Below are positions 2,498 through 15,321 of a DNA stretch of 15,321 nucleotides, piece after piece. How positions within the stretch are numbered: the stretch's first letter is position 1; each line of letters opens with the position of its first letter. The notes beneath the pieces are model-generated. The model ran no database searches, was not told the DNA's origin, and saw nothing but the letters and a program-made list of their open reading frames with translations. Source of the stretch: a virus (Duplodnaviria > Heunggongvirae > Uroviricota > Caudoviricetes); IMG/VR virus record IMGVR_UViG_2698536443_000012; one strand, given 5' to 3'. The position numbers and the translations under genes are program-made.

Positions 2498-2519
2498 TAT
2501 TAGCCTCGTTGGTTAGCTA

Positions 2520-2738: not shown

Positions 2739-2810
2739 GTCGGCTCCTTGTGGTTAGCGTTGCCTGCTTTTTAACCACGTCAGGCGAGGTGGTATCCTCT
2801 GAGGGGTCTG

Positions 2811-3167
2811 TTACTCGAGAGGAAATTGGTTATGAATACAATCAAGTTTTCTTGCCCAGAATGTGGTGGCTAAGTCTTTGACACATCCTTTAAGCCGCAG
2901 GGCTCTGACAGTTTCGCGGGAGCCATCTGCAAAAATTGTGGTCACCTTGTAACTGAAGATGAGTCCTCGCAGTTCGATGACGAAATCGTTGACAATATCT
3001 TCGGTGCACTCACCAGAGACTTTCTGAAGTAAAGGCGCATACCGCTTAGTTACCGCTCTGATAACTCTTACCTGTCCGGCAATGGCGCTGATATCAATAT
3101 AAAGCGCCATCGCTGTTTCTTTGCTGATCCCTGGACGCCTTCCATTCTGATGTTTGACTTCGCCCAC
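2811..3167 (-). CDS. Hypothetical protein (118 aa), first ORF of the leftward DicA-controlled operon
   Basis: GTG start at 3167 with GAGGA RBS about 7 nt upstream. About 75 nt downstream of a minus-strand promoter-like TTGACC-17-CTAAAT. No recognisable domain; could instead be two smaller genes (ydfA/ydfB-like). Confidence 0.4.
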   Translation of the reverse strand: MGEVKHQNGRRPGISKETAMALYIDISAIAGQVRVIRAVTKRYAPLLQKVSGECTEDIVNDFVIELRGLIFSYKVTTIFADGSRETVRALRLKGCVKDLATTFWARKLDCIHNQFPLE

Positions 3168-3239
3168 TGAGAAATCCTCTGCTTCCCCTTAACGCCGGGT
3201 AGCGGAACTGTTTGCTGAGAACACCGTGCGGTGTCTTGA

Positions 3240-3300
3240 TGAGTAGAATTTAGAATAGCCTAAGAGTTATGGTCAAGCTTTTTGTGTAGAAAAACCTAAG
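3240..3300 (-). promoter_or_regulatory. Candidate DicA-repressed leftward promoter (dicBp-like) with operator half-sites
   Basis: On the minus strand, -35 TTGACC (plus 3271-3276) and -10 CTAAAT (plus 3248-3253) with 17-bp spacer. Minus-strand CTTAGGTTTTTCTACA (plus 3285-3300) nearly repeats CTTAGGTTTCTCTACG in the dicA-dicC intergenic region. TTAG-N6-CTAA at 3250-3263. Confidence 0.4.
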
Positions 3301-3374
3301 CTTCTTGATGTAAAAAACACAAGTATTTGAAAGTTTGTGCTTTTTATTACAGAGAGTTGCGAAAAAAAGGGGGG

Positions 3375-3782
3375 TTATTTATTTGCGCTTCTTTTGCGAG
3401 CTTTGAGTAGTTCTTCAAAAAGTTTGTTGAAATTCTCAACTCGAGCACGCATCTCTGACAACAGAGCCTTTTGCTCTGACTCAGGCAGTGCGTCGAACAG
3501 TTGAAGCAACTCTTTTTGATCTTCTGTCAGATTGACTGGCTGATTATCTGGGATCGGTTCGCCTGGTTGCTTATCTTCATCTCCAAAAAGAAGCCAAGTC
3601 GGCGAGCACTGAAGCGCCTGGCTCAGTGCGAATAATCTCTTCCCCGCTGGCTGTGTTTCATCTCTTTCCCATTGAGAAATTGTTACGTGAGCCACTTTGA
3701 CCAGCTTACCTAATGCGGCCTGAGACAGTTTTAATTTTTTTCGCCTGTATAAGAGGCGAGCACCGAAGGTTTCGTTTTTCAT
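3375..3782 (-). CDS. dicA: Prophage repressor DicA (XRE-family HTH, cI-like)
   Basis: 135-aa ORF with HTH motif LSQAALGKLVKVAHVTISQWERDETQP and C-terminal ...ALPESEQ...EMRARVENFNKLFEELLKAR closely resembling E. coli DicA as I recall it. Divergent from dicC. Confidence 0.85.
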   Translation of the reverse strand: MKNETFGARLLYRRKKLKLSQAALGKLVKVAHVTISQWERDETQPAGKRLFALSQALQCSPTWLLFGDEDKQPGEPIPDNQPVNLTEDQKELLQLFDALPESEQKALLSEMRARVENFNKLFEELLKARKRSANK

Positions 3783-3850
3783 ATTAGGTAATTCTAATTT
3801 TTCTTGGCTTAGGTTTCTCTACGATCTAGTTTCCTTAGGAAAATCTAAGG
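3783..3850. promoter_or_regulatory. dicA-dicC intergenic operator/promoter region (three TTAGG-type sites)
   Basis: ATTAGGTAATTCTAAT (3783-3798), GCTTAGGTTTCTCTACG (about 3808-3825) and CCTTAGGAAAATCTAAGG (3833-3850). All share TTAGG/CTAA inverted half-sites and lie between divergent repressor and cro-like genes. Confidence 0.55.
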
Positions 3851-3858
3851 GGTTCGAT

Positions 3859-4086
3859 ATGTTGAAAATTGATGCTATAGCGTTTTTTGGCAGCAAAACA
3901 AAGCTTGCCAATGTCGCAGGAGTTAGGCTGGCAAGCGTTGCTGCATGGGGGGAACTGGTTCCTGAAGGTCGCGCGATGCGCCTGCAAGAGGCATCCGGCG
4001 GGGAACTTCAGTACGACCCCAAAGTTTATGACGAATATCGTAAGGCAAAGCGGGCGGGGCGGTTGAACAATGAAAATCACCACTGA
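3859..4086 (+). CDS. dicC: Cro-like regulator DicC
   Basis: 75-aa ORF MLKIDAIAFFGSKTKLANVAGVRLASVAAW...GRAMRLQEASGGELQYDPKVY, matching my memory of DicC. Divergent from dicA at the head of the rightward operon. Confidence 0.8.
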   Translation: MLKIDAIAFFGSKTKLANVAGVRLASVAAWGELVPEGRAMRLQEASGGELQYDPKVYDEYRKAKRAGRLNNENHH

Positions 4087-4621
4087 ACAGGTTTGTGAGG
4101 CTCTGGATACCTGGGTATGCCGACCAGGAATGACACAGGAGCAGGCGACGATATTAATCACGGAAGCATTCTGGGCTCTGAAAGAACGCCCGAACATCGA
4201 TGTTCAACGCGTCACGTTTAATGATGGCGAGGTTGATCAACGGGCGCTGGGCGTTAACCGGGTGAAGATATTCGAACGCTGGAAAGCTATCGACACCAGA
4301 GATAAGCGTGACAAATTCACGGCGCTGATTCCGGCAATTATGGAGGCTATCCGGATCAGCGATTTCAGATTGTATTGTGAAATTACTGACGGAAAAAGCA
4401 TTACGTACATGATCGCCGGGTTAAACAAAGAATATGGCGATGTGGTGGAGTCCGGGCTGCTTTTTGCGGATCCAGTTGTTGTGGAACGTGAGACTGACGA
4501 GCTTATAGAAAAAGCTATTGCTTTCAAGCACGCGTATCGTCAGCAATACCAATATTACTTTGCAGATAAACAAATGTCTGCCAGGGGTTCGTATGAGTAT
4601 CGATGCACTACGATGGGCTAA
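4070..4621 (+). CDS. YdaT-like (CII-like) regulatory protein
   Basis: 183-aa ORF overlapping the dicC 3' end by 17 nt. Segment TALIPAIMEAIRISDFRL resembles the YdaT family motif (KLIPAILAILPRELRHRL in Rac YdaT, from memory). Sits in the cII position. Confidence 0.55.
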   Translation: MKITTEQVCEALDTWVCRPGMTQEQATILITEAFWALKERPNIDVQRVTFNDGEVDQRALGVNRVKIFERWKAIDTRDKRDKFTALIPAIMEAIRISDFRLYCEITDGKSITYMIAGLNKEYGDVVESGLLFADPVVVERETDELIEKAIAFKHAYRQQYQYYFADKQMSARGSYEYRCTTMG

Positions 4622-5633
4622 AAAGGTGAAAACCGGCAGTTCATCCAGTAAGTCAGTATTGACCTGGCTTGCTGATATGTGCGGTGCCGATTTGTGTGCA
4701 TACCCGTCTGTATCTGCACTGGCAGAAGTAACGGAACTGAACAAAAAGACTGTGCAGGACAGCTTACGACACCTGATGGAGATTGGGTTAATTGTTGATA
4801 CCGGTGAGAGAAAAGGCAGAACAAAGCAAATTGTGGTGTACCGACTTATCGGTGTAGAAGAAAGTGTTGCCGAGCCTGAATACACCCAAAAACGGGAGTC
4901 TTTAAAGGTGGGTAAAATTGGTGCTGTTAATAAAAACAGTACCGAAAATGGTTATGTTTCAGCACAAAACAGACCCAAAAACAGAACTCTTAGCTGCATG
5001 GAAAATAACCAAAGACACCCAAATTTTCCATCAAAGACACCCAAAAACGGATCACGGAACCCAAAGGAACCCAAAGATCTAAACCCCACACATAACGCAC
5101 GCGAGAGTGCTCCGACCAGTGAGCAGGAAGTTTTGTCGTTACAGGCAGCCCCCCCTGTATTCCTGTATGGCCTGAGCGAACCCATCGGAAAATTCCCGAT
5201 GAGCGATAGCTGGTATCCGTCACGGGATTTTCGACGACGGGCTGCGTTGTGGGGGATGGCTTTGCCGGAGACAGAATTTACACCTGCTGAACTTGCCGCC
5301 TTCCGGGACTACTGGGCAGCGGAGGGGAAAGTGTTTACGCAGATTCAGTGGGAGCAGAAATTCGCCCGTCACGTAAATCACGTCAGGGCGCAGGTTAAAC
5401 CAGTCAGCAAAGGGGTAAACCATGCAGCAGCACCAGGTGGCACCGCATCACGGGCAGTTCAGGAAATTCGGGCAGCACGTGAGCAGTGGGAACGTGAAAA
5501 CGGATTTATCAGCGACGGAAACGGCCTGGAAGCTGTGGGAACTCATGGGGGTGGTTTATTCGAACCGCTGGATCCAGAAGAACGGGGCCGCACCTTCGAA
5601 GCTCTGGATTGCACAGATTGGCGCGATGACTGA
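4593..5633 (+). CDS. Phage replication initiator, lambda O-like (N-terminal winged helix)
   Basis: ATG at 4593 with AGGGG RBS. N-terminus SIDALRWAKK...SVSALAEVTELNKKTVQDSLRHLMEIGLIV is a winged-helix DNA-binding region typical of phage replisome organisers. Iteron-like repeats lie inside the coding region. Followed by a P-like gene. Confidence 0.65.
   Translation: MSIDALRWAKKVKTGSSSSKSVLTWLADMCGADLCAYPSVSALAEVTELNKKTVQDSLRHLMEIGLIVDTGERKGRTKQIVVYRLIGVEESVAEPEYTQKRESLKVGKIGAVNKNSTENGYVSAQNRPKNRTLSCMENNQRHPNFPSKTPKNGSRNPKEPKDLNPTHNARESAPTSEQEVLSLQAAPPVFLYGLSEPIGKFPMSDSWYPSRDFRRRAALWGMALPETEFTPAELAAFRDYWAAEGKVFTQIQWEQKFARHVNHVRAQVKPVSKGVNHAAAPGGTASRAVQEIRAAREQWERENGFISDGNGLEAVGTHGGGLFEPLDPEERGRTFEALDCTDWRDD
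4881..5076. repeat. Iteron-like direct repeats (putative origin) inside the O-like gene
   Basis: Repeated ACCCAAA(AAC) cores: ACACCCAAAAACGG at 4883, AGACCCAAAAACAG at 4971, AGACACCCAAA at 5013 and 5035, and tandem GGAACCCAAA at 5057 and 5067. Confidence 0.5.
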
Positions 5634-6087
5634 GCAGCAAATCCGGCAGGTCTGCCGCCAGTGCATGGACCGCTGCCGGGCGGGTGAAACATGGCCTCCG
5701 GACCTGGCTGAGTTTGTGGCACTGATTTCGAAAAGCGGAGCCAATCCATTCGGTCTGACGGTGGATGCTGTGATGGAGGAGTACCGCCGCTGGCGCAATG
5801 AGTCCTGGCGATACGACGGAAGTGATAAGTACCCGTGGTCTCAGCCTGTGCTGTATCACATTTGCCTCGAGATGCGTTCAAAGGGGATTGAGCGCCAGAT
5901 GACCGAAGGGGAATTAAAACGGCTTGCAGAACGGCAACTGACGAAATGGGCAAAGCATGTTAGTAACGGCCTGAGCGTTCCGCCAGTCCGGCGACAACTG
6001 GCGGCCCCCAAACGCCCGTCGGGGCCAACGCCAATTGAGTTGCTGAAACAGGAATATGAACGCCGGAAAGCGGCTGGTTTTGTTTGA
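5422..6087 (+). CDS. Replication protein P-like (helicase loader); start uncertain
   Basis: C-terminal two-thirds resemble lambda P (motifs TWPPDLAEFVAL and YPWSQPV versus lambda FLPSPGQFVAW and YPWKSNAHY, from memory). ATG 5422 has an AAGGGG RBS but overlaps the O-like gene by 212 nt out of frame; alternative starts are 5545 and 5626. Confidence 0.6.
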   Translation: MQQHQVAPHHGQFRKFGQHVSSGNVKTDLSATETAWKLWELMGVVYSNRWIQKNGAAPSKLWIAQIGAMTEQQIRQVCRQCMDRCRAGETWPPDLAEFVALISKSGANPFGLTVDAVMEEYRRWRNESWRYDGSDKYPWSQPVLYHICLEMRSKGIERQMTEGELKRLAERQLTKWAKHVSNGLSVPPVRRQLAAPKRPSGPTPIELLKQEYERRKAAGFV

Positions 6088-6120
6088 GTTGAGAAGTGAT
6101 TTTTTACCGGGAGGAAATTT

Positions 6121-6855
6121 ATGGAGACTGTTTTTGACGCACTGAAAGCGATGGGAAAAGCCACGTCGGTAGAGCTGGCTGCGCGACTTGATATCAGTCG
6201 TGAAGAAGTACTGAACGAGCTGTGGGAACTGAAAAAGGCTGGCTTCGTTGATAAAAGCGTATACACCTGGCGTGTGGCTGATAACAACGTTCAGCAGGAA
6301 CAGCCAGCGCCAGAAGAAACCACCACGGCAACAGAAGCGAAAATCTCAGAGTGCGATTTAACCGCGACGATTGAACAACGCGGACCACAAACGGCGGATG
6401 AACTGGCTACGCTGTTCGGTACAACATCCCGCAAAGTTGCTTCAACGCTGGCAATGGCAATCAGCAAAGGTCGTCTGATTCGCGTAAACCAGAACGGTAA
6501 AATTCGTTACTGCATACCAGGTGATAATTTACCAGCAGAGCCGAAAGTTGAATCGGTAGCGGAAACCGATGGTAAAGCCTTTCCTCAGCCAGCCGGTGTT
6601 GCGTTACCGGTACAGAAAGATGCAACACAGGAAGATATTAAAACAGAAACTGTGGCGGACATTGTGCAGTCGCTGCCATCGTTTACTGCAACGCGAGAAG
6701 ATGATTTGATTTTGCCATCGCTGCATATGGCAAATCGCGAACTGCGTAGGGCGAAGAATCATGTCCAGAAGTGGGAGCGAGTCTGCGCCGCGCTGCGGGA
6801 GCTGAACAAGCACCGGGATATGGTTGCCGGGATTTGTCGGAAGTCCGGGCAATGA
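6121..6855 (+). CDS. Hypothetical phage protein (244 aa), N-terminal winged-helix-like region
   Basis: Strong RBS GGGAGGAA 6 nt upstream of the ATG. N-terminus [38 protein letters not shown] looks like a winged-helix fold. No confident family assignment. Confidence 0.55.
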
Positions 6856-7522
6856 GCGGATGGTGCAGGCCTGAAATCATGATACTAACAATGAAGGTAA
6901 AATGCATCGGCAGTCTGATTGGTCGTAGTGAGGCGGCGGTCAGGATGAAAGCCCAGGTTAAGGGAATAAGCCTGATTCTGCGGGGTGATTTTCACCAGTC
7001 AACAAAATATCCGTAGCGCGATAACGGTCAAAAATTATGGCGCTGACACTTTTGTGCCACTGGAGATGACTGTACCTAAGTTCAGGGGAGAAGAACACGT
7101 CCGGTGGGATGGTCGGGCCAGATTTAAAGGGCAGGTCATGGCTCCAGCCTGTACGCTGGCAATGGAGGCTGCCTGGCGGGAAATTGATATGGGAACCACG
7201 CCACTCAGGGATTTACTGCCGGTCCAGAGAATAAATTCCTGTTACGGTTACACCACTGTGATCTTGCAAGTGCAGGAAAGTAGGTCTACACGGTAACGCG
7301 AGTGCGTGTAACTTTTGATGTCATTCCCGTAGAAACACCGGACAAATTTTCGCTGACAGGTCATGCAGAAGGTATAAATCTGCAGATTATGGACAATTAC
7401 GGATATCCGGCAAGAGCCGGAAAAAGCATGCCGCCTCTAATTCTCAGTGGAAGATGGACTTGATTATACTCATTGCATTGTCAGAAATAGTTATCCATTA
7501 AAGGCTGGCTATTCCAAACAGG

Positions 7523-7550
7523 ATGTTGATTACAAAAATGTAATCAACAT
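7523..7550. promoter_or_regulatory. Perfect 12-4-12 palindrome upstream of the binding-protein moron
   Basis: ATGTTGATTACA-AAAA-TGTAATCAACAT in an AT-rich intergenic region about 165 bp upstream of the ATG at 7715. A TATAAT hexamer lies at 7577-7582. Confidence 0.4.
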
Positions 7551-7714
7551 GTAAGGTTTATACTCTTCAATATGCGTATAATTTTCCTTATTTTGTTGAC
7601 TTTAAATAACAAGCTATGCACGAGGTAAAGTCGGATAAGTTTATCTGGATGTAATATATATTATTTGTAGTGTTTATAACTTTATTTCATGATAACCAAT
7701 AAAAGGAGTTTTTT

Positions 7715-8473
7715 ATGAGGAACATAATGGCAGGTTTTTTAATATTCCTGTCTTCTGCTGCTTATGCTGATATCAATCTGTATGGTCCTGGTGGCCCGCA
7801 TACAGCCTTGCTTGATGCAGCCAAACTTTATGCCGAAAAAACAGGTATTATAGTGAACGTTCATTACGGCCCACAGAACAAATGGAATGAAGATGCCAAA
7901 AAAAATGCAGATATCTTGTTTGGCGCATCAGAACAATCTGCTCTGGCTATCATTCGGGACCATAAAGACAGCTTCAGTGAAAAAGATATTCAGCCTCTTT
8001 ATCTGCGAAAAAGTATTTTACTGGTAAAGAAAGGTAATCCTAAAAATATCCGGAGTATTGACGACCTGACCAGACCTGGGATTGGCGTAATTGTTAATGA
8101 TGGTGGTGGTACCAGTAATACATCAGGCACTGGCGTCTGGGAAGATATTGCCGGACGTAAAGGGAATATAGAAACTGTCGCCGCAATCCGAAAAAATATT
8201 ATTTTATATGCGCCCAATAGCGGAACTGCACGTAAGGCTCTTGAGAATCAGCCTGGAGCAGATGTCTGGATAACCTGGGCTGACTGGGCAGCCAGTAATC
8301 CAGAAATTGGTGATGTCGTGGAAATAGCGCCAGACTACGTGATATGGCGTGATATGAACATTACAGTACGTCAGGATGCAAATGATGAAACCCGTCGATT
8401 TGCAGAATGGCTACAAACCGATGAAGCGGCGCCTGCATTCAAAAAATATGGCTGGACCAGGAAAGGCACTTGA
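7715..8473 (+). CDS. Secreted/periplasmic solute-binding protein, ModA-like (type 2 periplasmic binding fold), orphan
   Basis: AAGGAG RBS 6 nt upstream. N-terminal signal peptide MRNIMAGFLIFLSSAAYA then DINLY. C-terminal ...RRFAEWLQTDEAAPAFKKYGWT resembles the ModA C-terminus (...FYDYLKGPQAAEIFKRYGFT, from memory). AT-rich gene with no adjacent permease or ATPase genes. Confidence 0.7.
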   Translation: MRNIMAGFLIFLSSAAYADINLYGPGGPHTALLDAAKLYAEKTGIIVNVHYGPQNKWNEDAKKNADILFGASEQSALAIIRDHKDSFSEKDIQPLYLRKSILLVKKGNPKNIRSIDDLTRPGIGVIVNDGGGTSNTSGTGVWEDIAGRKGNIETVAAIRKNIILYAPNSGTARKALENQPGADVWITWADWAASNPEIGDVVEIAPDYVIWRDMNITVRQDANDETRRFAEWLQTDEAAPAFKKYGWTRKGT

Positions 8474-8479
8474 CATCCT

Positions 8480-8505
8480 CGTCCTTCAGGACGTGGATTC
8501 TTTTT
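8480..8505 (+). terminator. Weak terminator-like hairpin after the binding-protein gene
   Basis: CGTCC-TTCA-GGACG stem-loop followed within 6 nt by a T5 run. A second hairpin ATGCCGC-GCCA-GCGGCAT follows at 8510-8527 without a U-tract. Confidence 0.3.
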
Positions 8506-8808
8506 CCGGATGCCGCGCCAGCGGCATGTAGGGGCAGCTCACAAAACGGAAAAAATTGTACGCTAAGCCTCGCCAGGTGAACTGAATTCATTCCGATATG
8601 GGAATTCCCATATCGGGCGAAAACGGTTTGCTGTAACGGCAGAGTTAAGTAGGATTGCTGCGGGTGCTTGAGGCTATCTGCCTCGGGCATGAACACCAAC
8701 GGCAGATAGATAAAAGCCCCACCCGACTATAAATCGAAGTGAGGCCCCTATATGCTCGTCACATATAGATTGCCTCTTACGGACCGAAAGGTCAAGGAGA
8801 AGCAGGCT

Positions 8809-8964
8809 ATGAAGCAGCAAAAGGCGATGTTAATCGCCCTGATCGTCATCTGTTTAACCGTCATAGTGACGGCACTGGTAACGAGGAAAGACCTCTGCGA
8901 GGTACGAATCCGAACCGGCCAGACGGAGGTCGCTGTCTTCACAGCTTACGAACCTGAGGAGTAA
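8809..8964 (+). CDS. hokD: Hok-family membrane toxin (HokD/RelF-like), with in-frame upstream mok extension from 8752
   Basis: 51-aa ORF MKQQKAMLIALIVICLTVIVTALVTRKDLCEVRIRTGQTEVAVFTAYEPEE, the Hok family signature. The in-frame extension MLVTYRLPLTDRKVKEKQA with GAGG RBS fits a mok reading frame. Confidence 0.85.
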   Translation: MKQQKAMLIALIVICLTVIVTALVTRKDLCEVRIRTGQTEVAVFTAYEPEE

Positions 8965-9032
8965 GAGACCAGGCGGGGGAGAAATCCCTCGCCACCTCTG
9001 ATGTGTCAGGCATCCTCAACGCACCCGCACTT

Positions 9033-9060
9033 AACCCGCTTCGGCGGGTTTTTGTTTTTA
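9033..9060 (+). terminator. Rho-independent terminator (hok mRNA 3' end)
   Basis: AACCCGC-TTCG-GCGGGTT stem with UUCG tetraloop followed by TTTTTGTTTTT. Confidence 0.6.
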
Positions 9061-9184
9061 TTTTCAACGCGTTTGAAGTTCCGGACGGCGCCGGAATAGA
9101 ATCAAAAATACTTAAGTAGCGCGCAGGGAGAAGAGGGATGGACCCCGAACAGGGGAGTGCTATTTATCTGGAAGGATTCTGTTG

Positions 9185-9442
9185 ATGAGAATCGAAGAAT
9201 TACGTGAAATTTTTAGTGAAGATGGCCTCTATACTGTGCGCGTTGAGAAGGGCGCTATTGTCAGCCACTGCCGTATTAAATGTTTACAGTCTCAACAAAG
9301 GAAGAGTGGAGCTGCGTTAATTCATTTTGTGGATGGGCTTGTGACGGATGGTTTTATTTTGCGTGCAAATGAATTTGTCACATCGTTGCCGTCTCTGAAA
9401 GAAGCTGGGATTAAGGCTGGTTTTTCTGCTTTTGAAGATTAG
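9185..9442 (+). CDS. Small prophage protein, Rem-like by position (85 aa)
   Basis: ATG at 9185 (the track's TTG at 9182 is an alternative) with GGAAGGA upstream. Lies between hok and the DUF968 gene as rem does in Qin. Function unknown. Confidence 0.5.
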   Translation: MRIEELREIFSEDGLYTVRVEKGAIVSHCRIKCLQSQQRKSGAALIHFVDGLVTDGFILRANEFVTSLPSLKEAGIKAGFSAFED

Positions 9443-9511
9443 TGAATTCATCTACAATTCAGCGCAGGGCTGAACCCCTGTTGAGTAACACTGTGCCACC
9501 GGAGAAAGCCG

Positions 9512-9790
9512 ATGGCGCAAAATTCCAGACTACACAATTCTGATAATTCAGCCGTCTTTGCCAGCAGGCACGGGCGGCGTTCTCATGCATTCAAATCTGA
9601 CTGGTTCCGGCACGCCCCATGCACTGAAGAACAGGCCGAATGGCTGATTCAGAACTACCGCAGACGTGGGTATGAGTTTAGGAAAGCCCTCAGCCTCGAT
9701 TATCGTCACTGGATAATCTACGTCAGGCTGCCGTACTCCGAGCGCCCACCGCGTCCGTCCCGCACATTCCAGCAACGCATCTGGAGGTAA
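9512..9790 (+). CDS. Hypothetical protein (92 aa)
   Basis: ATG with GGAGA RBS about 6 nt upstream. Stop immediately precedes the GGAGG-GTG start of the next gene. Basic, Arg-rich composition. Confidence 0.45.
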   Translation: MAQNSRLHNSDNSAVFASRHGRRSHAFKSDWFRHAPCTEEQAEWLIQNYRRRGYEFRKALSLDYRHWIIYVRLPYSERPPRPSRTFQQRIWR

Positions 9791-9791
9791 C

Positions 9792-10847
9792 GTGCGGGTA
9801 TTACTTCGACCTGTTCCGGTACCGGAACTTGGGTTGGTGGTCCTTAAACCAGGCCGTGAATCCATGCAGGTATTCCATAACCCTCGAGTGCTTGTGGAGC
9901 CGGAACCGAAAAGCATGCGCGGTCTGCCGTCCGGCATCGTCCCTGCCGTTCGCCAGCCGCTAGCGGAGGATAAATCATTACTGCCGTTTTTCAGCAATGA
10001 GCGTGTGATTCGTGCTGTTGGTGGCGCTGGTGCACTGTCTGACTGGCTGTTGCGTCATGTCAAATCCTGCCAGTGGCCTCATGGTGACTATCATCACAGT
10101 GAAACCGTTATTCACCGTTATGGTACCGGCGCAATGGTGTTGTGCTGGCACTGCGACAACCAGCTGCGTGACCAGACATCCGAATCACTCGAGCAACTTG
10201 CTCATCAAAACCTGTCAGCATGGATGATTGACGTCATCGGTCACGCAATAAGCGGTACGCAGGAGCGTGAATTATCTCTGGCTGAATTATCCTGGTGGGC
10301 GGTCCGCAATCAGGTGGCGGACGCGCTACCGGAAGCGGTATTACGTCGTTCGCTGGGGTTGCGTGCGGAAAAAATCCGCTCAATGTACCGTGAAAGCGAC
10401 ATCGTACCGGGAGAGCAGACCGCCACCATCATACTGAAGCAGCGCACAAAAAATCTTGCGCCGCTGCCTCACGCCCACCAGCAAAACCCGCCACAGGAAA
10501 AGACGGTGGTCAGCATTGCCGTTGATCCGGAGTCACCGGCTCAGTATCTCCAGCGCCAGAAACCACAACGGGAAGAGATGCCTGTATACACGCGCTGGGT
10601 AAAAACGCAGAAATGCATGACGTGCGGTAATCAGGCAGATGATCCGCATCACATCATTGGTCATGGACTGGGAGGGATGGGAACAAAGGCTGATGATTTG
10701 TTTGTTATTCCGCTGTGCCGTAAATGTCATAACGAACTGCACGCTGGGGTAAAAGATTTTGAAGAAAAACACGGCAGCCAGCTGTTGTTGCTGATTCGTT
10801 TTTTAATGCACGCGAGAAATTCGGGTGTCCTGAAGTGGAAAGCATGA
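9792..10847 (+). CDS. DUF968-family protein (YdfU-like) with C-terminal Cys/His zinc-finger/HNH-like motifs
   Basis: GTG start with GGAGG RBS. 351 aa; C-terminus CMTCGNQADDPHHIIGHGLGG...CRKCHNELH. Immediately upstream of rusA and Q, as ydfU is in Qin. Confidence 0.7.
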   Translation: MRVLLRPVPVPELGLVVLKPGRESMQVFHNPRVLVEPEPKSMRGLPSGIVPAVRQPLAEDKSLLPFFSNERVIRAVGGAGALSDWLLRHVKSCQWPHGDYHHSETVIHRYGTGAMVLCWHCDNQLRDQTSESLEQLAHQNLSAWMIDVIGHAISGTQERELSLAELSWWAVRNQVADALPEAVLRRSLGLRAEKIRSMYRESDIVPGEQTATIILKQRTKNLAPLPHAHQQNPPQEKTVVSIAVDPESPAQYLQRQKPQREEMPVYTRWVKTQKCMTCGNQADDPHHIIGHGLGGMGTKADDLFVIPLCRKCHNELHAGVKDFEEKHGSQLLLLIRFLMHARNSGVLKWKA

Positions 10848-11213
10848 ATGACTGAACGGATAGAATTTGTTTTGCCTTACCCGCCGACGGTGAATACCTA
10901 CTGGCGACGTCATGGCAATACGTATTTCATCTCGGAAGCCGGAAAGCGTTATCGCCGTGATGTGGCGCTAATTGTTCGCCAGCAGCGGCTGAAATTAAAC
11001 CTGTCCGGAAGGCTGGTGATAAAGATTATTGCAGAGCCACCGGATAAGCGCCGTCGTGACCTGGACAATATCCTGAAAGCACCACTGGATGTGCTGACGC
11101 ATGCCGGACTTCTCATAGACGACGAGCAGTTTGATGAAATCAATATTGTGCGCGGTCAGCTCGTTCCTGGTGGGCGGCTGGGGATAAAAATCACAGAACG
11201 GGAGTGCGCATGA
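10848..11213 (+). CDS. rusA: Holliday junction resolvase RusA
   Basis: 121-aa ORF with YPPTVNTYWRRHG...RRRDLDNILKAPLDVLTHAGLLIDDEQ, matching conserved RusA motifs (compare E. coli RusA ...[22 protein letters not shown]). Start abuts the stop of the upstream gene. Confidence 0.85.
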   Translation: MTERIEFVLPYPPTVNTYWRRHGNTYFISEAGKRYRRDVALIVRQQRLKLNLSGRLVIKIIAEPPDKRRRDLDNILKAPLDVLTHAGLLIDDEQFDEINIVRGQLVPGGRLGIKITERECA

Positions 11214-11899
11214 ATAACCACTATTTACAGTTTGTGCGTGAGCAGCTCATTATCGCCACCGCTGATTTGAGTGGGGCAACAAAAGGTCAGCTTGAAGCCT
11301 GGCAGGAGAATGCCATGTTCGATACAGGGCGTTACAGGCGAAAAAAAATCCGGTACCGCGATGAAGTGACTGGAAAAATGATAACGCGGGATAATCCACC
11401 AATCCCGGGAAAGCAATCGCTGGCGAAGGTGACGTCAATTCCTCTGGTCAGTCCGGTTGAGTTTTCGACATCATCGTGGCGGCGGGCTGTTCTGTCTCTT
11501 GAAGAACATCATAAAGCCTGGTTGTTGTGGTGTTACAGCGGGAGTATTTGTTGGGAATATCAGATCGCGATAACACAGTGGGCGTGGAATGAATTTAATA
11601 CTCAATCCGGTACCAGAAAAATTGCTGGGAAAACGCAGGAACGCCTGAAAAAATTAATCTGGCTGGCGGCGCAGGCAGTAAAAGCAGAACTTTTTGGTGG
11701 GGAAGGTTATGAATATCAGGAGCTGGCATTACTGGCGGGAGTGACAACTAAAAACTGGTCCAAAACATTTACTCGTCACTGGGTTGCAATGAAACACATT
11801 TTTCACCGACTGGATAGTGAGGCTTTATTATTTGTAATGAGAACACGTTCAAAACAAAAGGCGGCATTTTCAAAGCAAAGTGTTGCAAAAGTAGATTGA
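11210..11899 (+). CDS. Late-gene antiterminator, Q-like
   Basis: ATG at 11210 overlaps the rusA stop (ATGA); the track's 11204 start is GTG. About 230 aa, located between rusA and the late promoter/tRNA region, the canonical Q position. Family assignment is from context plus general resemblance. Confidence 0.65.
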   Translation: MNNHYLQFVREQLIIATADLSGATKGQLEAWQENAMFDTGRYRRKKIRYRDEVTGKMITRDNPPIPGKQSLAKVTSIPLVSPVEFSTSSWRRAVLSLEEHHKAWLLWCYSGSICWEYQIAITQWAWNEFNTQSGTRKIAGKTQERLKKLIWLAAQAVKAELFGGEGYEYQELALLAGVTTKNWSKTFTRHWVAMKHIFHRLDSEALLFVMRTRSKQKAAFSKQSVAKVD

Positions 11900-11910
11900 A
11901 AGGCATATAT
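11882..11910 (+). promoter_or_regulatory. Candidate late promoter (pR'-like) overlapping the Q 3' end
   Basis: -35 TTGCAA (11882-11887), 17-bp spacer, -10 TATATT (11905-11910). A terminator lies about 55-80 nt downstream, as expected for a short Q-modifiable transcript. Confidence 0.3.
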
Positions 11911-11962
11911 TTCATGCAAATCTGATATTTTGCCGATTTTGTACGTGATGGCAAAAGCAAAC

Positions 11963-11990
11963 AAAACCCGCCCACAAGCGGGTTTTGTTG
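11963..11990 (+). terminator. Rho-independent terminator (tR'-like)
   Basis: AAAACCCGC-CCACAA-GCGGGTTTT stem-loop followed by a T-rich run. Confidence 0.55.
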
Positions 11991-12056
11991 TGCCACTTAT
12001 CTCGGATAGACATGGTGAATGCGCTGGTGGAGGAGATAAGGGTGATTTTTGTATGC

Positions 12057-12085
12057 TTGCAACATTGATTTCGTAACGTTATTAT
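12057..12085 (+). promoter_or_regulatory. Candidate sigma70 promoter for the tRNA cluster
   Basis: -35 TTGCAA (12057-12062), 17-bp spacer, -10 TATTAT (12080-12085), placing the start about 10 nt before tRNA-Ile. Confidence 0.4.
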
Positions 12086-12094
12086 CCTGCGCCC

Positions 12095-12170
12095 GGCCCT
12101 TTAGCTCAGTGGTGAGAGCGAGCGACTCATAATCGCCAGGTCGCTGGTTCAAATCCAGCAAGGGCCACCA
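12095..12170 (+). tRNA. ileZ: tRNA-Ile2 (anticodon CAU, lysidine type), ileZ-like
   Basis: Hand-folded cloverleaf: acceptor GGCCCTT/AAGGGCC, D-arm GCTC...GAGC, anticodon loop CTCATAA, T-loop TTCAAAT, encoded CCA. Close to E. coli ileX as I recall it. Confidence 0.85.
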
Positions 12171-12171
12171 A

Positions 12172-12247
12172 CCGCCACTAGCCATCAGGAAAGAGCGTCA
12201 ACCCTTTAAGTTGAGTGTGCGAGGTTCGAGTCCCCGGTGGTGGTCCA
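12172..12247 (+). tRNA. tRNA-like gene, atypical (possible argN-like); identity unresolved
   Basis: Acceptor CCGCCAC/GTGGTGG with one GU pair, T-arm CGAGG-TTCGAGT-CCCCG, anticodon stem TCAAC/GTTGA with loop CCTTTAA (C at position 33, anticodon UUU by position), degenerate D-stem, encoded CCA. Confidence 0.45.
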
Positions 12248-12260
12248 TTATCGGTATTCT

Positions 12261-12334
12261 GCGTTGTTAGCTCAGCAGGACAGAGCAATTGCCTTCTAAG
12301 CAATCGGTCACTGGTTCGACTCCAGTACAACGCG
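12261..12334 (+). tRNA. tRNA-Arg (anticodon UCU), argO-like
   Basis: Acceptor GCGTTGT/ACAACGC, D-arm GCTC...GAGC, anticodon stem ATTGC/GCAAT with loop CTTCTAA, T-arm ACTGG-TTCGACT-CCAGT. No encoded CCA (CTA follows). Confidence 0.8.
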
Positions 12335-12340
12335 CTACAC

Positions 12341-12415
12341 TTATTTTCCCGGCTCGCTTTTGCGGGCCTTTTTTGTATCTGCGCCACGCCCGGCGCATAC
12401 CAACCACAGAGCCTT
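12341..12415 (+). repeat. Copy 1 of a ~75-bp post-tRNA segment (terminator hairpin plus second hairpin), about 90% identical to 14106-14179
   Basis: Contains terminator GGCTCGC-TTTT-GCGGGCC plus T6 (12351-12374) and hairpin TGCGCC-ACGCCC-GGCGCA, then CAACCACAGAGCCTT. Aligned by eye to the second copy. Confidence 0.7.
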
Positions 12416-12481
12416 AATGAGGTAGCCTGAGTTTAACGGACACTCCTTCCTGAAATAGAATGGCATCAGAAGGAGCTAATA

Positions 12482-12784
12482 ATGAGCAGAAAAACCCAAC
12501 GTTACTCTAAAGAGTTCAAAGCCGAAGCTGTCAGAACGGTTCTTGAAAATCAACTTTCGATCAGTGAAGGCGCTTCCCGATTATCTCTTCCTGAAGGCAC
12601 TTTAGGACAATGGGTTACCGCCGCCAGAAAAGGGCTCGGTACTCCTGGTTCCCGCACGGTGGCTGAACTGGAATCTGAAATTCTGCAACTGCGTAAGGCG
12701 TTAAATGAAGCTCGCCTTGAGCGAGATATATTAAAAAAAGCAACTGCGTATTTTGCCCAGGAGTCGCTGAAAAATACGCGTTAA
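12482..12784 (+). CDS. IS600 transposase OrfA (HTH)
   Basis: MSRKTQRYSKEFKAEAVRTV...LRKALNEARLERDILKKATAYFAQESL, recognised as IS3-family OrfA (IS600). Confidence 0.85.
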   Translation: MSRKTQRYSKEFKAEAVRTVLENQLSISEGASRLSLPEGTLGQWVTAARKGLGTPGSRTVAELESEILQLRKALNEARLERDILKKATAYFAQESLKNTR

Positions 12785-12819
12785 TCGAACAATGGCGACA
12801 ACAATTCCCCATTGAAGCG

Positions 12820-13638
12820 ATGTGTCAGGTATTTGGTGTATCCAGGAGCGGTTATTACAACTGGGTACAGCATGAACACTCAGACAGAAAACAAAGTGAT
12901 GAGCGGCTAAAACTGGAGATTAAGGTGGCACATATCCGCACTCGCGAAACATATGGAACCCGGCGGCTCCAGACGGAGCTGGCAGAGAATGGCATCATCG
13001 TTGGTCGTGACCGACTGGCACGTCTTCGTAAGGAGCTAAGGCTACGCTGTAAGCAGAAACGCAAGTTCAGAGCGACTACGAACTCGAACCACAATCTGCC
13101 AGTTGCGCCAAATCTGCTGAACCAGACGTTCGCTCCTACAGCACCAAATCAGGTCTGGGTGGCGGACCTGACGTATGTTGCCACACAGGAGGGATGGTTG
13201 TACCTCGCTGGCATCAAAGATGTTTATACGTGCGAAATTGTCGGCTACGCCATGGGAGAGCGCATGACAAAAGAGCTGACAGGTAAAGCCCTGTTTATGG
13301 CGCTCAGGAGCCAGCGCCCACCTGCCGGGCTAATCCACCACTCCGATCGAGGTTCACAGTACTGCGCATACGATTACCGGGTCATACAGGAGCAGTTTGG
13401 TCTGAAAACATCAATGTCGCGTAAAGGTAACTGTTACGACAACGCTCCGATGGAAAGCTTCTGGGGAACGCTGAAAAATGAGAGCCTGAGCCACTATCGT
13501 TTTAAGAGCCGGGATGAGGCCATCTCAGTAATACGGGAATACATTGAGATTTTCTACAATCGTCAGCGTCGTCACTCTCGTCTGGGGAATATCTCCCCGG
13601 CAGCCTTCAGGGAAAAATATCATCAGATAGCTGCTTAA
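12820..13638 (+). CDS. IS600 transposase OrfB (DDE integrase core); expressed as OrfAB by -1 frameshift
   Basis: DDE motifs in VWVADLTYV, HHSDRGSQY and MESFWGTLKNE. The frame overlaps the orfA 3' end after the AAAAAAG slippery site. Confidence 0.85.
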   Translation: MCQVFGVSRSGYYNWVQHEHSDRKQSDERLKLEIKVAHIRTRETYGTRRLQTELAENGIIVGRDRLARLRKELRLRCKQKRKFRATTNSNHNLPVAPNLLNQTFAPTAPNQVWVADLTYVATQEGWLYLAGIKDVYTCEIVGYAMGERMTKELTGKALFMALRSQRPPAGLIHHSDRGSQYCAYDYRVIQEQFGLKTSMSRKGNCYDNAPMESFWGTLKNESLSHYRFKSRDEAISVIREYIEIFYNRQRRHSRLGNISPAAFREKYHQIAA

Positions 13639-13681
13639 AAAAAGAACAAATGGTAGTGTCCGCTATTGTCAGTACACCTCA

Positions 13682-13814
13682 GGATGCTAAGTACGGGAAA
13701 TGGAGAGCAAGAATTAATGCGTCTGGAAAGTGTATTAACCTTGGATACCATGACACTGCCGAACTTGCCGCTGCGGCTTTTGAGGCAGCCAGAATGAAAT
13801 ATCATACCGTTTAA
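13682..13814 (+). pseudogene. 3' remnant of an HNH homing endonuclease (AP2-like C-terminal domain), truncated by IS600
   Basis: Frame ending at 13814 encodes ...DAKYGKWRARINASGKCINLGYHDTAELAAAAFEAARMKYHTV, typical of the AP2-type C-terminus of phage HNH endonucleases. The 5' part is missing and the frame runs into the IS600 right end. Confidence 0.45.
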
Positions 13815-13868
13815 AGATGTAAGCTGCCGTTAGTGACTCTTAAGTTGCAACGGTGGCTTTTTTTATTT

Positions 13869-13943
13869 GGGTCAGTCGTATAAAGGTCATTACGGAAGGC
13901 TGTTAACCTTCTTATCGTGGTTCGAGTCCACGCTGTCCCGCCA
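13869..13943 (+). tRNA. tRNA-Asn-like (anticodon GUU)
   Basis: Acceptor GGGTCAG/CTGTCCC (one T-T mismatch), anticodon stem GAAGG/CCTTC with loop CTGTTAA, T-arm CGTGG-TTCGAGT-CCACG, encoded CCA. D-arm is weak (3 bp). Confidence 0.55.
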
Positions 13944-13948
13944 AACAT

Positions 13949-14024
13949 GCTGGTTTAGCTCCAATGGTAGAGCAACTGACTTGTAATCATCAGGTCGCCA
14001 GTTCGATTCCGGTAGCCGGCACCA
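13949..14024 (+). tRNA. tRNA-Thr-like (anticodon UGU), thrU-like with weakened anticodon stem
   Basis: Near-identical to E. coli thrU as I recall it, except the 3' anticodon-stem strand (TCATC instead of TCAGT) leaves only 3 canonical base pairs. Anticodon loop CTTGTAA, T-loop TTCGATT, encoded CCA. Confidence 0.55.
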
Positions 14025-14027
14025 TAT

Positions 14028-14102
14028 GCGGGTACCGTATAATGGCTATTACCTCAGCCTTCCAGGCTGATGATGCGGGTTCGATTCCCGCTACCCGCTC
14101 CA
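14028..14102 (+). tRNA. tRNA-Gly (anticodon UCC), glyT-like
   Basis: Sequence GCGGGTACCGTATAATGGCTATTACCTCAGCCTTCCAGGCTGATGATGCGGGTTCGATTCCCGCTACCCGCTCCA differs from E. coli glyT (from memory) at only a few positions. Perfect acceptor stem, encoded CCA. Confidence 0.8.
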
Positions 14103-14105
14103 GAT

Positions 14106-14179
14106 TTATTATCAGGCTCGCTTCGGCGGGCTTTTTTTGTATCTGCGCCACGCCCGGCGCATATCAACCACAGAGCCTT
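14106..14179 (+). repeat. Copy 2 of the ~75-bp post-tRNA segment, including a terminator
   Basis: Terminator GCTCGC-TTCG-GCGGGC plus T7 (14115-14138), hairpin TGCGCC-ACGCCC-GGCGCA, then CAACCACAGAGCCTT; about 90% identical to 12341-12415. Confidence 0.7.
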
Positions 14180-14270
14180 TCGGGGGTGAGCTTACGGAGT
14201 GGTCAGTGTGACTTTCTCTGTGGGCAGATCGCTCCCGGGCGTTGGCTCACCCACCCAAAGGAACGTCACG

Positions 14271-14702
14271 ATGTTTGGTATTTTTGGTAAAAAAGCCCGC
14301 AGAGCAGCAACTGAAATTAAAAAGTTTGAGAAACGCGATCTGGCACAGGCGGTTATTAATGCTGCCTACCTGGTGGCCTATGCAGATGGTGAATGTGAGA
14401 CTTCAGAGAAAGCGAAGATCGAACAGGTATTACGTAACCAGCCAGCATTGTCCGCATTTACGTCAGAAATTAATGCCATCAGTGCCACGATCACAGGTCA
14501 GCTTGACACCAATTTTAAAATTGGTCGTCGTGCAGCGTTGCGTGAAATTGAAGATGTGAAACACGATACGCGTGAAGCGGAAGATGTGCTGGATGTGGCG
14601 GTGGCCATTGCTGAAGCAGATGGTGAAATTGAGCCGGAAGAGCGTAAGGTTCTGGAAGAGATTGCTGGTGTTCTTGGCCTGCGACTGGAGAACCACCTGT
14701 GA
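14271..14702 (+). CDS. TerB-like (tellurite-resistance TerB domain) protein
   Basis: 143-aa ORF from ATG 14271 (AGGAA upstream); the track's longer version starts at 14199. Two A-x-ADG-E-x-E repeats (AYLVAYADGECETSEKAKIEQVL and VAIAEADGEIEPEERKVLEEIAGVLG) typical of TerB-family proteins. Confidence 0.65.
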   Translation: MFGIFGKKARRAATEIKKFEKRDLAQAVINAAYLVAYADGECETSEKAKIEQVLRNQPALSAFTSEINAISATITGQLDTNFKIGRRAALREIEDVKHDTREAEDVLDVAVAIAEADGEIEPEERKVLEEIAGVLGLRLENHL

Positions 14703-14866
14703 CGGTAAAACTGCGTCTGGCCGCTGTGGCACTCCTGCTGTTTCTGGTGGTGATGGTGGATTTCACCAGCAGGATCATGTCGGTGCTGGCGGATGGAGTG
14801 CTGGTCTGCGGCATTGTGGTATTGCTGTGGCCGGTGATAAAAAGAAACAGCCTGCATAATGCTTGA
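14699..14866 (+). CDS. Small hydrophobic protein (55 aa), probably translationally coupled to the TerB-like gene
   Basis: GTG at 14699 overlaps the upstream stop (GTGA), with GGAG 8 nt upstream. Predicted sequence VTVKLRLAAVALLLFLVVMVDFTSRIMSVLADGVLVCGIVVLLWPVIKRNSLHNA has two hydrophobic segments. Below the track's length cutoff. Confidence 0.4.
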   Translation: MTVKLRLAAVALLLFLVVMVDFTSRIMSVLADGVLVCGIVVLLWPVIKRNSLHNA

Positions 14867-15180
14867 TTTTTTTGTTTGCTGTTTATTAAAAACACTTCTG
14901 CATGGTGAATCCCCCTGTGCGGAGGGGCGATCAGCAACCAGGTATATGGGATAATCGCGGATTCAGGTGCTGATACTGAATTCACCGGGAGGCACCCGGC
15001 ACCATGCTTTGCCACAAAAGTGTTGTTTCTGTTTTTCTCAAACTATCATCATTATCCCTTTATTTCCGGCTGCGCATGGCGTGGCCTTTTTTTTACGACC
15101 AGCCACTGGCAGATGGCCATCCTGTAATTTGATTCCGGTTCCGGCTTTTTAACTCTGTTCCTGTACACGGGAGAAATTCG

Positions 15181-15321
15181 ATGTCGATTAAACATTATGA
15201 TGTTGTCAGGGCGGCGTCGCCGTCAGACCTTGCGGAAAAGCTGACACATAAACTGAAAGAGGGCTGGCAGCCGTTTGGTAGTCCGGTGGCCATAACCCCT
15301 TATACCCTGATGCAGGCGATT
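15181..15321 (+). CDS. Small late-region phage protein (N-terminal 47 codons; continues beyond the window)
   Basis: ATG with GGGAGAA RBS 7 nt upstream. MSIKHYDVVRAASPSDLAEKLTHKLKEGWQPFGSPVAITPYTLMQAI resembles a short conserved family I associate with the Q-to-lysis interval of lambdoid prophages (possibly DUF1737); uncertain. Confidence 0.5.
   Translation, partial: MSIKHYDVVRAASPSDLAEKLTHKLKEGWQPFGSPVAITPYTLMQAI

Follow-up and report, generated by a model that had tools for sequence, protein, structure and literature searches.

Two lambdoid late-leader tRNA modules placed side by side across an assembly gap at IS600 in a draft prophage contig

The window analyzed here, which is the entire 15,321-bp draft contig CYFN01000078.1 (assembly GCA_001283445.1), carries two sets of tRNA genes separated by an IS600 element (Table 1). 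Five tRNAs clear the Rfam gathering score of 29 by a wide margin and flank the IS, with Ile2 and Arg in set 1 to its left and Asn, Thr and Gly in set 2 to its right, as a previous sequence-only reading of two different sets had it. When both sets were checked with ARAGORN, four of the five were called (Met/Ile2-CAT, Arg-TCT, Asn-GTT and Gly-TCC), along with a 'Lys-TTT' at the middle position of set 1; the one missed was tRNA-Thr(UGU), which has two mismatches in its anticodon stem. RefSeq labels the sequence identical to the first tRNA of set 1 in E. coli O26 as tRNA-Ile, and the O26 sequence identical to the upstream Q gene is annotated 'bacteriophage antitermination protein Q'.

Table 1. Features of the late region around IS600 in the window
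Feature	Position	Strand	Basis
Late antiterminator Q, 229 aa, PF06323 (Phage_antiter_Q), PPompW-type	11210-11899	+	Called gene, Pfam match
Promoter-like site TTGCAA-17-TATATT (11883-11911), then strong hairpin terminator (11960-11989)	11883-11989	+	Consensus scan
Promoter-like site TTGCAA-17-TATTAT, 3' end 9 nt upstream of tRNA-Ile	12057-12085	+	Consensus scan
tRNA-Ile2, anticodon CAU, ileZ type	12095-12170	+	Rfam 72.5 bits (match 12095-12167); ARAGORN label Met
tRNA-like element, argN-derived, decayed, probable pseudogene	12172-12247	+	No Rfam match, non-cloverleaf fold
tRNA-Arg, anticodon UCU, argO type	12261-12335	+	ARAGORN; Rfam 68.1 bits (match 12261-12334)
Boundary segment copy 1: predicted intrinsic terminator 12351-12368 with U run, second hairpin 12380-12397	12349-12415	+	
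Unclosed assembly gap	12416-12417	.	NN in CYFN01000078.1, AA in window
IS600 (IS3 family), 1264 bp; orfA 12482-12784, orfB 12820-13638	12418-13681	+	
HNH-AP2 endonuclease 3' remnant, 43 codons and stop of a 170-aa gene, HNH part absent	13682-13814	+	
Phage-21-type late terminator tR' (predicted)	13821-13868	+	Homology to phage 21, whose record annotates the terminator
tRNA-Asn, anticodon GUU	13869-13943	+	ARAGORN; Rfam 55.3 bits (match 13869-13940)
tRNA-Thr, anticodon UGU	13949-14024	+	Rfam 49.0 bits (match 13949-14021), non-canonical pairs marked
tRNA-Gly, anticodon UCC	14028-14102	+	ARAGORN; Rfam 55.4 bits (match 14028-14099)
Boundary segment copy 2: predicted terminator 14114-14133, hairpin 14144-14161	14113-14179	+	
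TerB-family protein, tciA-like, 143 aa	14271-14702	+	Pfam match on called gene
DUF3927	14699-14866	+	Pfam match on called gene
DUF1737/nanS-p esterase gene, start only	15182-15321	+	Pfam match on called gene

The middle element of set 1 had earlier been described as tRNA-like between intact Ile and Arg genes, and that caution was apt: both neighbors are intact, and the element itself gives no Rfam match at E<=1, is unannotated by RefSeq in the identical O26 sequence and folds into something other than a cloverleaf (z = -1.4). Aligned to the argN(TCG) gene of phi330, it shows a 1-nt deletion in the D-arm and an altered anticodon loop, with the UCG anticodon lost, and is probably an argN-derived pseudogene. 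The tRNA-Lys offered by ARAGORN was rejected, as both Rfam and the argN alignment point to decay. Upstream of the set, the first promoter-like site may be the late promoter and the hairpin after it the first terminator, in a region with only weak sub-threshold isrK/OrzO-P matches in Rfam. The second promoter-like site travels with the set-1 module, as the homology of the window to the modules of phi330 and CFSAN027346 starts at 12056/12057.

Set 2 opens with a terminator (fold -20.2 kcal/mol, z = -4.2) whose homology to phage 21 starts at position +2 of that phage's late transcript, and the succession tR', tRNA-Asn(GUU), tRNA-Thr(UGU) is that of the phage 21 record (positions 39542-39748, 91.8%). 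Upstream of it, the HNH-AP2 remnant and IS600 take the place of the pR'21 promoter and Q-binding element, and the Q of the window is of the PF06323 type rather than Q21. By alignment, the tRNA-Thr is a chimera, its first 26 nt matching the phage 21 tRNA-Thr and the remainder being thrU-like. Each set is followed by a shared segment, previously put at about 75 bp and 90% identity, which on alignment spans 67 nt with 62/67 identical positions and in each copy combines an intrinsic terminator with a further hairpin. The terminators of the two copies, together with tR', are GC-rich hairpins with a trailing U run (fold energies between -20 and -25 kcal/mol, z between -2.4 and -4.2) and are predicted to be intrinsic, Rho-independent terminators.

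IS600, as a member of the IS3 family, has imperfect terminal inverted repeats and, linked through a programmed -1 frameshift, an orfA (HTH) and an orfB (DDE rve), and generates a 3-bp target-site duplication upon simple insertion. The copy in the window has TG...CA termini and 99.1% (99.13%) identity to five annotated IS600 copies; its called gene matches the Pfam HTH_Tnp_1 and rve domains, and RefSeq IS600 copies are annotated with the programmed frameshift. With the same end calls, a perfect 3-bp duplication was recovered in 4/5 of these control copies. To its right, the sequence from 13682 onward matches intact HNH-AP2 genes at their 3' end with 100% identity, and one such intact gene is present in the E. 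coli UTME-3 prophage. These genes belong to a class of free-standing, homing-type endonucleases whose full-length product has 170 aa, with an HNH motif and an AP2 domain at the C terminus. The window retains only codons 128-170; the 54-aa ORF that starts within IS600 is a fusion artefact. The abutment of IS600 on a truncated HNH/AP2 gene, noticed earlier, is thus borne out, and the junction (IS600|GGATGC...) recurs in independent assemblies; contigs of other assemblies begin 1-12 nt from it or extend just 76-137 nt into IS600. This right junction is real and part of a phage-21-type module (Q21, HNH, Asn/Thr/Gly, TerB). The sequence right of IS600 is 91% identical to PPompW and 95.8% to a prophage with precisely that module (99.3% over the first 597 bases), and the exact TerB allele of the window occurs in 11 contigs only.

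The structure of the right flank bears directly on the simplest account of the locus, namely that IS600 inserted into a phage with tandem cassettes and that the duplication only seems to be missing owing to a misplaced boundary. Mixed tRNA cassettes free of an IS do exist, as in phage vB_EcoS-689R5, but here the flank begins in mid-gene, at codon 128 of 170 with the 5' 381 nt missing, and the ends of IS600 are verified by the four control copies with perfect duplications. Furthermore, a concatenated IS-less query against E. coli genomes and phages returned no tandem cassettes within ~1 kb spacing, so that the same arrangement without IS600, which the sequence-only reading had proposed as counter-evidence, was sought and did not turn up. 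It is the absence of the HNH-AP2 5' half that excludes a simple insertion, whatever the left flank, and we regard this explanation as very improbable.

On the left side, positions 12416-12417 are NN in the public CYFN01000078.1 and are displayed as AA in the window, the sole two differences across 9,051 aligned bases. The NN lies exactly at the left terminus of IS600, with ...CTTNN as the source left flank and GGA as the right. The 'TAA' left flank is therefore an artefact, and the target-duplication test is inapplicable to that side; the earlier argument from differing triplets (TAA versus GGA) does not survive, and neither does the placement of IS600 exactly at the end of copy 1, where there is an assembly gap. 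The join between set 1 and IS600 is an unclosed gap rather than sequence, and continuity from one backbone through a single IS copy to the other is interrupted by it. Two candidate sources of the AA had been tried: a native '...cagagccttaa' variant, which matched only two unrelated viral contigs and became moot since the AA proved to be NN, and a deletion from the left flank of the O26 PPompW IS600, ruled out by its ATA. Gapped exact patterns for the left junction, allowing 0-30 nt of gap, gave 0 matches, whether among complete E. coli genomes or among contigs from metagenomes, genomes and viruses.

Left of the gap, the contig matches PPompW, a defective prophage of E. coli O26, at 99.8-99.9% (99.92%) identity, reaching 100% across 11900-12415, and the homology stops at 12415, directly before a 'tc' and G-run found in all relatives. 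The DUF968 allele was too widespread as a lineage marker (indexed in 5,198 collection blocks) and a rare RusA allele, present in 23 contigs in all, served instead. Contigs with this allele have the order set 1, a 7-18-G tract and TerB without IS600, for example CYDC01000074.1, whose accession lies in the same range as CYFN01000078.1; CYCZ01000098.1, of the same range and allele, terminates in a garbled G-run. The single other assembly with both markers breaks inside Q, and its set-1 flank is not visible. Comparison with related prophages, as previously advised, thus recovered the native single cassette but not the left junction elsewhere. A search of 5,426 complete E. coli genomes and 50,697 phage records returned neither of the junctions and no case of the two cassettes next to each other.

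With roughly even confidence, we conclude that the draft scaffold places two standard lambdoid late-leader tRNA modules side by side and that their adjacency is not established. The first, comprising Q, the promoter-like site, tRNA-Ile2, the decayed argN, tRNA-Arg(UCU) and the terminator segment, is that of the defective PPompW prophage; the second, with tR'21, tRNA-Asn, tRNA-Thr, tRNA-Gly, the terminator segment and TerB, is that of a phage-21/JLK-2012-type prophage in which IS600 has cut an HNH-AP2 gene inserted behind pR'21. The left contig would halt at the poly-G tract, to be tied to the IS600-led contig solely through the 2-N scaffold gap. Short-read assemblies break down at poly-G tracts, and this lineage carries IS600 in multiple copies. 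The 'missing target duplication' would then amount to NN displayed as AA and, possibly, a false join across a multicopy IS. Of the proposed fusion of two cassettes, the two phage lineages stand (99.8-99.9% against 91% identity to PPompW on the two sides), but no read-through links the cassettes.

If the flanks belong to two loci, one would expect 'cagagcctttcGGGG...agcttacgg', and the 5' half of the HNH-AP2 gene (...GTGTCTTGGGA) joined to TGAGGTAGCC. Gapped exact patterns for this reciprocal junction of the HNH 5' part with the IS600 left end gave 0 matches in metagenome, genome and viral collections; the predicted truncated HNH protein, in three allelic versions, was absent from the protein collection, and the HNH cluster listing held no fragment of ~131 aa. 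This missing product, although it speaks against a scaffold artefact, is a weak result because the lineage is barely sampled. A read-pair scaffolder also requires pairs from the end of the set-1 contig to the left end of IS600, which implies a real IS600 nearby, and the join is perfectly collinear, with the same orientation and a homologous site upstream of TerB, as would be rare for a random false join among many IS600 flanks.

These observations bring us to the possibility, to which we accord somewhat less than an even chance, that the arrangement is real, with one IS600 copy between PPompW set 1 (its G-run hidden in the NN gap) and the truncated HNH-set 2. PPompW is known to host other prophages, and the join could have come about through an IS600-adjacent deletion inside a tandem or nested prophage cluster, or through recombination of two IS600 copies in two prophages, resulting in inversion or deletion. 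The halves are collinear, the backbone switches exactly at IS600, and the HNH 5' half and pR'21 are gone; the IS600 of the O26 11368 PPompW likewise has no duplication and borders a deletion. The G-run is itself a rearrangement hotspot, being a deletion endpoint in L026 and the site of an IS110-family insertion in L030, and a poly-G tract would account for a nearly closed gap left unfilled. Moreover, Nakamura et al. 2021 (PMC8112680) report that every PPompW is defective and that these prophages show deletions mediated by IS elements as well as recombination between prophages. Against a real join, the left junction is unsequenced and was found nowhere else in the searched genomes and contigs, the nearest PPompW relatives keep the native order, and short reads do not allow an assembler to say for certain that the two flanks of a 1.26-kb IS present in multiple copies belong to a single copy.

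Judging from known families, the tRNAs would lie in the leader of the Q-antiterminated late operon and supplement decoding of AUA, AGA/AGG, ACA, GGA/GGG and AAY codons in lytic growth, and the hairpin/U-run elements would stop polymerase not modified by Q. Were the join real, the defective prophage would be a hybrid whose five tRNA genes (Ile2, Arg, Asn, Thr, Gly) are functional and in which set 2, its own promoter lost, would be transcribed only via Q-modified read-through across the complete IS600, and a prophage tRNA array would have been enlarged by IS elements rather than by homologous boundary sequences. The side-by-side placement in the scaffold also counsels caution, in that finding an entire multicopy IS within one short-read contig is no proof that its flanks are linked, and the no-duplication argument had rested on two draft-scaffold N bases displayed as A.

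The nearest precedent for the gap itself is technical: pipelines of the SSPACE/GapFiller type put N gaps at read-pair joins, and false joins are possible according to their authors (PMC5320598). The likeness is one of gap pattern, an N gap exactly at a multicopy IS end beside a homopolymer tract. The rearrangements of PPompW (PMC8112680) resemble the window in having an IS3-family element at the point where the late region switches backbone or has a deletion, but one window junction is an assembly gap, and the event here is only a possible one.

As for the modules, set 1 has the order and position of the ileZ-argN-argO cluster downstream of Q in Stx-converting prophages and their lambdoid relatives (933W type), including PPompW of O26/O111/O103/O145, and its tRNA-Ile2(CAU) and tRNA-Arg(UCU) are essentially identical to the phi330 (Stx2) and PPompW records. 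In contrast to the complete cluster (CAU, UCG, UCU), its middle tRNA is decayed and no stx genes follow, making it a degraded member; native PPompW continues from the cluster into the G-run and TerB, whereas the window has the gap and IS600. Stx2 phages with one 'Met' and two Arg tRNAs near stx2a have been described (PMC7946995), and phi330 combines Q21 with Ile/Arg/Arg and stx2. Set 2 has the terminator-tRNA order of the Asn-Thr pair after pR'/tR' in phages 21, Sf6, SfI, ST64T and BTP1, and Asn(GUU) and Thr(UGU) downstream of Q are on record (PMC3636060). It is 91.8% identical to phage 21, and it differs from leaders of this type in being without pR'21 and the Q-binding element, in that only the 3' quarter of HNH-AP2 is left upstream, and in its Thr, a phage 21/thrU-like chimera. 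Its closest counterparts are the Asn-Thr-Gly variants of phage JLK-2012 and the E. coli UTME-3 prophage, which are 99.3-99.8% identical, with TerB/tciA next. The mixed complement, earlier deemed unusual, is not so, as phi330 and the isolated phage vB_EcoS-689R5 carry mixed sets; the latter has the same Q type and the same Ile2 and argN-like elements, then a thrU-like Thr and Gly(UCC), but in one compact cassette with no IS600, HNH remnant or duplicated terminator segment. It is well known that lambdoid prophages have interchangeable late-operon leader tRNA modules bounded by a conserved terminator segment, and equally that, as PPompW decays in EHEC/EPEC lineages, breaks often fall at IS600 and at the poly-G tract. 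Every component and process at this locus is already known, and a real fusion would be one more IS-mediated prophage rearrangement.

An exact-protein look-up identified the window as contig CYFN01000078.1 in its entirety (15,321 bp), part of draft assembly GCA_001283445.1. Bases 6271-15321 of the public record differ from the window at exactly two positions, 12416-12417, which are NN where the window has AA; it seems that A was substituted for ambiguous bases in the window sequence. The left "junction", at which IS600 had been read as sitting exactly at the end of the first terminator segment, is an unclosed gap that coincides with the left end of IS600, itself a multicopy element. Because these positions are NN in the record, the "TAA" triplet that had been set against GGA does not exist as sequence, so that this flank argument fails on the left, and set 1 (the three tRNA-like elements left of IS600) is tied to IS600 at the scaffold level only. 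N-to-A replacement can produce false junction sequences, and the main value of our analysis lies in this caveat, together with that on IS-spanning joins in draft contigs.

Over 1-12415 the window shares 99.92% identity with the Paa/NleA-carrying prophage found in E. coli O26:H11 11368, and the same left-half module has been deposited under the name "PPompW", a defective O26 prophage. Homology to the relatives ends at 12415, directly before a poly-G tract: in all of them "...cagagcctt" is followed by "tc", 7-18 G, "agcttacgg..." and then TerB. The RusA allele of the window is rare (23 contigs in the collection), and contigs that carry it (CYDC01000074.1, with an accession in the same range as the window contig, and the related stretches L038, L039 and L040) have set 1, the G-run and TerB without IS600; this is the ancestral order in this PPompW lineage. 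The tract plausibly breaks short-read assemblies; CYCZ01000098.1, again with an accession in this range, terminates in a garbled G-run. It is also a rearrangement hotspot, serving as a deletion endpoint in the relative L026 and as an IS110-family insertion site in L030. The tract lies just right of the equivalent of 12415 (L005:6078-6095; L006:15414-15430, in the O26:H11 11368 PPompW; and L026-L041), coincides with a garbled contig end in L041, and is hypervariable between the terminator segment and TerB, reading G5TG in 21-type phages as against 7-18 G in PPompW relatives; it could be slipped-strand or phase-variable. Elsewhere in this half, a DUF1627 gene (6121-6855) is intact in the window (244 aa) and frameshifted in O26:H11 11368 by loss of one G (position 6601), and a Paa adhesin gene (7715-8473) and hokD are present.

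Features of the two tRNA sets and the intervening IS600
Feature	Coordinates	Support
tRNA-Ile2 (CAT)	12095-12170	ARAGORN; Rfam tRNA model 72.5 bits
argN-like element (ARAGORN label "Lys-TTT")	12172-12247	ARAGORN only; Rfam without match
tRNA-Arg (TCT)	12261-12335	ARAGORN; Rfam 68.1 bits
IS600	12418-13681	1264 bp; TG...CA ends; 99.13% identical to five annotated copies
tRNA-Asn (GTT)	13869-13943	ARAGORN; Rfam 55.3 bits
tRNA-Thr (UGU)	13949-14024	Rfam 49.0 bits; missed by ARAGORN
tRNA-Gly (TCC)	14028-14102	ARAGORN; Rfam 55.4 bits

On the right, the sequence from 13682 matches intact 170-aa HNH-AP2 endonuclease genes with 100% identity over their 3' end; the truncated endonuclease noticed beside IS600 indeed consists of codons 128-170 only. 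The missing 5' 381 nt exclude a simple IS600 insertion, as the sequence-only reading had held, and we accord that process a negligible probability. Control IS600 copies with the same ends show perfect 3-bp duplications in four of five cases (AGG, GGT, TGG, CAT). The window copy differs from each of five O26-type copies at an equal number of positions (11/1264) and may be a distinct variant or reflect several copies collapsed into one consensus. In the O26:H11 11368 PPompW, an IS600 (L006:20356-21619) flanked by ATA and ATT connects part of an antirepressor gene with the C-terminus of a tail fibre, and so marks a deletion in which the morphogenesis region was lost next to the IS.

The right junction, by contrast with the left, is genuine: contigs of other assemblies and of one metagenome match the window around it with 100% identity. 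Two of the related stretches (L016, L009) extend 76-137 nt into the right end of IS600, and four (L015, L017, L021, L022) begin at window 13684-13694, 3-13 nt past the junction on its downstream side; such contig ends are expected where short-read assembly meets a multicopy IS. Only 11 contigs carry the exact TerB allele, all below 2 kb except the window. A search of 5,426 complete E. coli genomes found neither junction, and in none of the genomes or phage records searched do the two cassettes lie less than ~1 kb apart. Gapped exact patterns for the left junction and for the reciprocal one (the HNH-AP2 5' part fused to the IS600 left end) gave 0 matches in the metagenome, genome and viral collections, and the protein collection does not contain the protein predicted for the reciprocal product.

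We consider the chances about even that the linkage of the two cassettes is a scaffolding artefact or unproven: the set-1 contig would have halted at the homopolymer tract and been joined across the N gap to IS600-led sequence, its native continuation being the G-run and TerB of its closest relatives. In favor of this reading, the N gap coincides exactly with the end of the IS, the contig breaks off at a homopolymer tract, the native order is kept in the closest relatives and IS600 is multicopy in this lineage; the authors of one widely used SSPACE/GapFiller pipeline describe greedy scaffolders as placing N gaps at read-pair joins and as capable of joining falsely (PMC5320598). A real IS600-mediated hybrid of two prophage modules is a serious possibility that falls somewhat below even. 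The two halves run collinearly and join at homologous positions, scaffolding by read pairs requires genuine links to the left end of an IS600, and the G-run would account for the gap left unclosed; moreover, PPompW typically shows IS-bordered deletions and inter-prophage recombination (PMC8112680), and the O26 11368 PPompW IS600 likewise lacks a duplication. Of the fusion first proposed, the different origin of the two cassettes stands, the left half being PPompW and the right half UTME-3-like, and the link between the cassettes does not reach beyond the scaffold level. The observation is partly confirmed, and its interpretation finds partial support at best; all the components and candidate processes were already known.

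Five of the supposed tRNAs score far above the Rfam threshold of 29 bits. The middle element of set 1, which has no match to that model, aligns with argN (TCG) of the Stx phage phi330 with a 1-nt D-arm deletion and an altered anticodon loop, has a predicted fold that is not a cloverleaf and lacks RefSeq annotation in the identical O26 sequence; it is a decayed argN. The tRNA-Thr gene is itself recombinant, aligning with phage 21 tRNA-Thr over its first 26 nt and beyond them with thrU, the thrU reference used being identical to the gene of phage vB_EcoS-689R5. The same chimeric gene is present in JLK-2012 and UTME-3; it has one compensating acceptor-stem change and two anticodon-stem mismatches and, being passed over by ARAGORN, may not be functional. 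Together the sets would decode AUA, AGA/AGG, AAY, ACA and GGA/GGG.

The similar segments reported after each set were recovered at 62 of 67 identical positions (12349-12415 and 14113-14179), both with a terminator hairpin and U run plus a second GC hairpin. In CFSAN027346 small cargo genes sit inside the segment, 3' of 'ttttttgtatctgcg', and it appears to behave as a module boundary. Set 1 has its own promoter-like site (TTGCAA-17-TATTAT, 12057-12085), which moves with the module into other phages. At 11883-11989 another promoter-like site, overlapping the 3' part of Q, precedes ~70 nt that close with a strong hairpin terminator acting in both directions by prediction, with weak sub-threshold Rfam matches to isrK and OrzO-P; this could be a small RNA, or the short transcript of the late promoter that stops at the terminator.

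The right half (13682-15321) shows 91% identity to PPompW as against 95.8% to the E. coli UTME-3 prophage, in which Q21, the HNH endonuclease, tRNA-Asn, tRNA-Thr, tRNA-Gly, TerB, DUF3927 and an esterase follow one another; phage JLK-2012 has this order without the HNH gene. At the same position the curated phage 21 record has the late promoter, Q-binding elements, transcription start, tR' terminator, tRNA-Asn and tRNA-Thr. Since homology to phage 21 begins at +2 of its late transcript, the window keeps tR'21 (13821-13868) and lacks pR'21. In UTME-3 the HNH-AP2 cassette is located between the transcription start and tR'21. Comparison of the related stretches L003:8399-9136 and L008:1159-1250 places a 170-aa HNH-AP2 cassette with its own upstream terminator between the pR'21 start and tR'21. 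Of the 5,426 complete E. coli genomes, 479 have an HNH 3' end that matches, and Salmonella enterica records also name close relatives; the cassette looks like a free-standing homing-type insertion in the late leader.

By analogy with known families, both tRNA sets would lie in a late-operon leader under Q antitermination, where the hairpin/U-run elements would stop unmodified polymerase and be read through by the Q-modified enzyme. Asn and Thr tRNAs are located downstream of Q in SfI, Sf6, ST64T and p21 (PMC3636060), and in Stx2 phages a "Met" tRNA and two Arg tRNAs lie near stx2a (PMC7946995). Cassette shuffling probably needs no IS, because mixed combinations are found in both phi330, with Q21 followed by Ile/Arg/Arg and stx2, and vB_EcoS-689R5 (L025:2695-3001), with the Q type of the window followed by Ile2(CAT), the argN-like element, thrU-like Thr and Gly(UCC). 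The compact cassette of the latter phage shows that the two tRNA sets have exchanged members without any IS.
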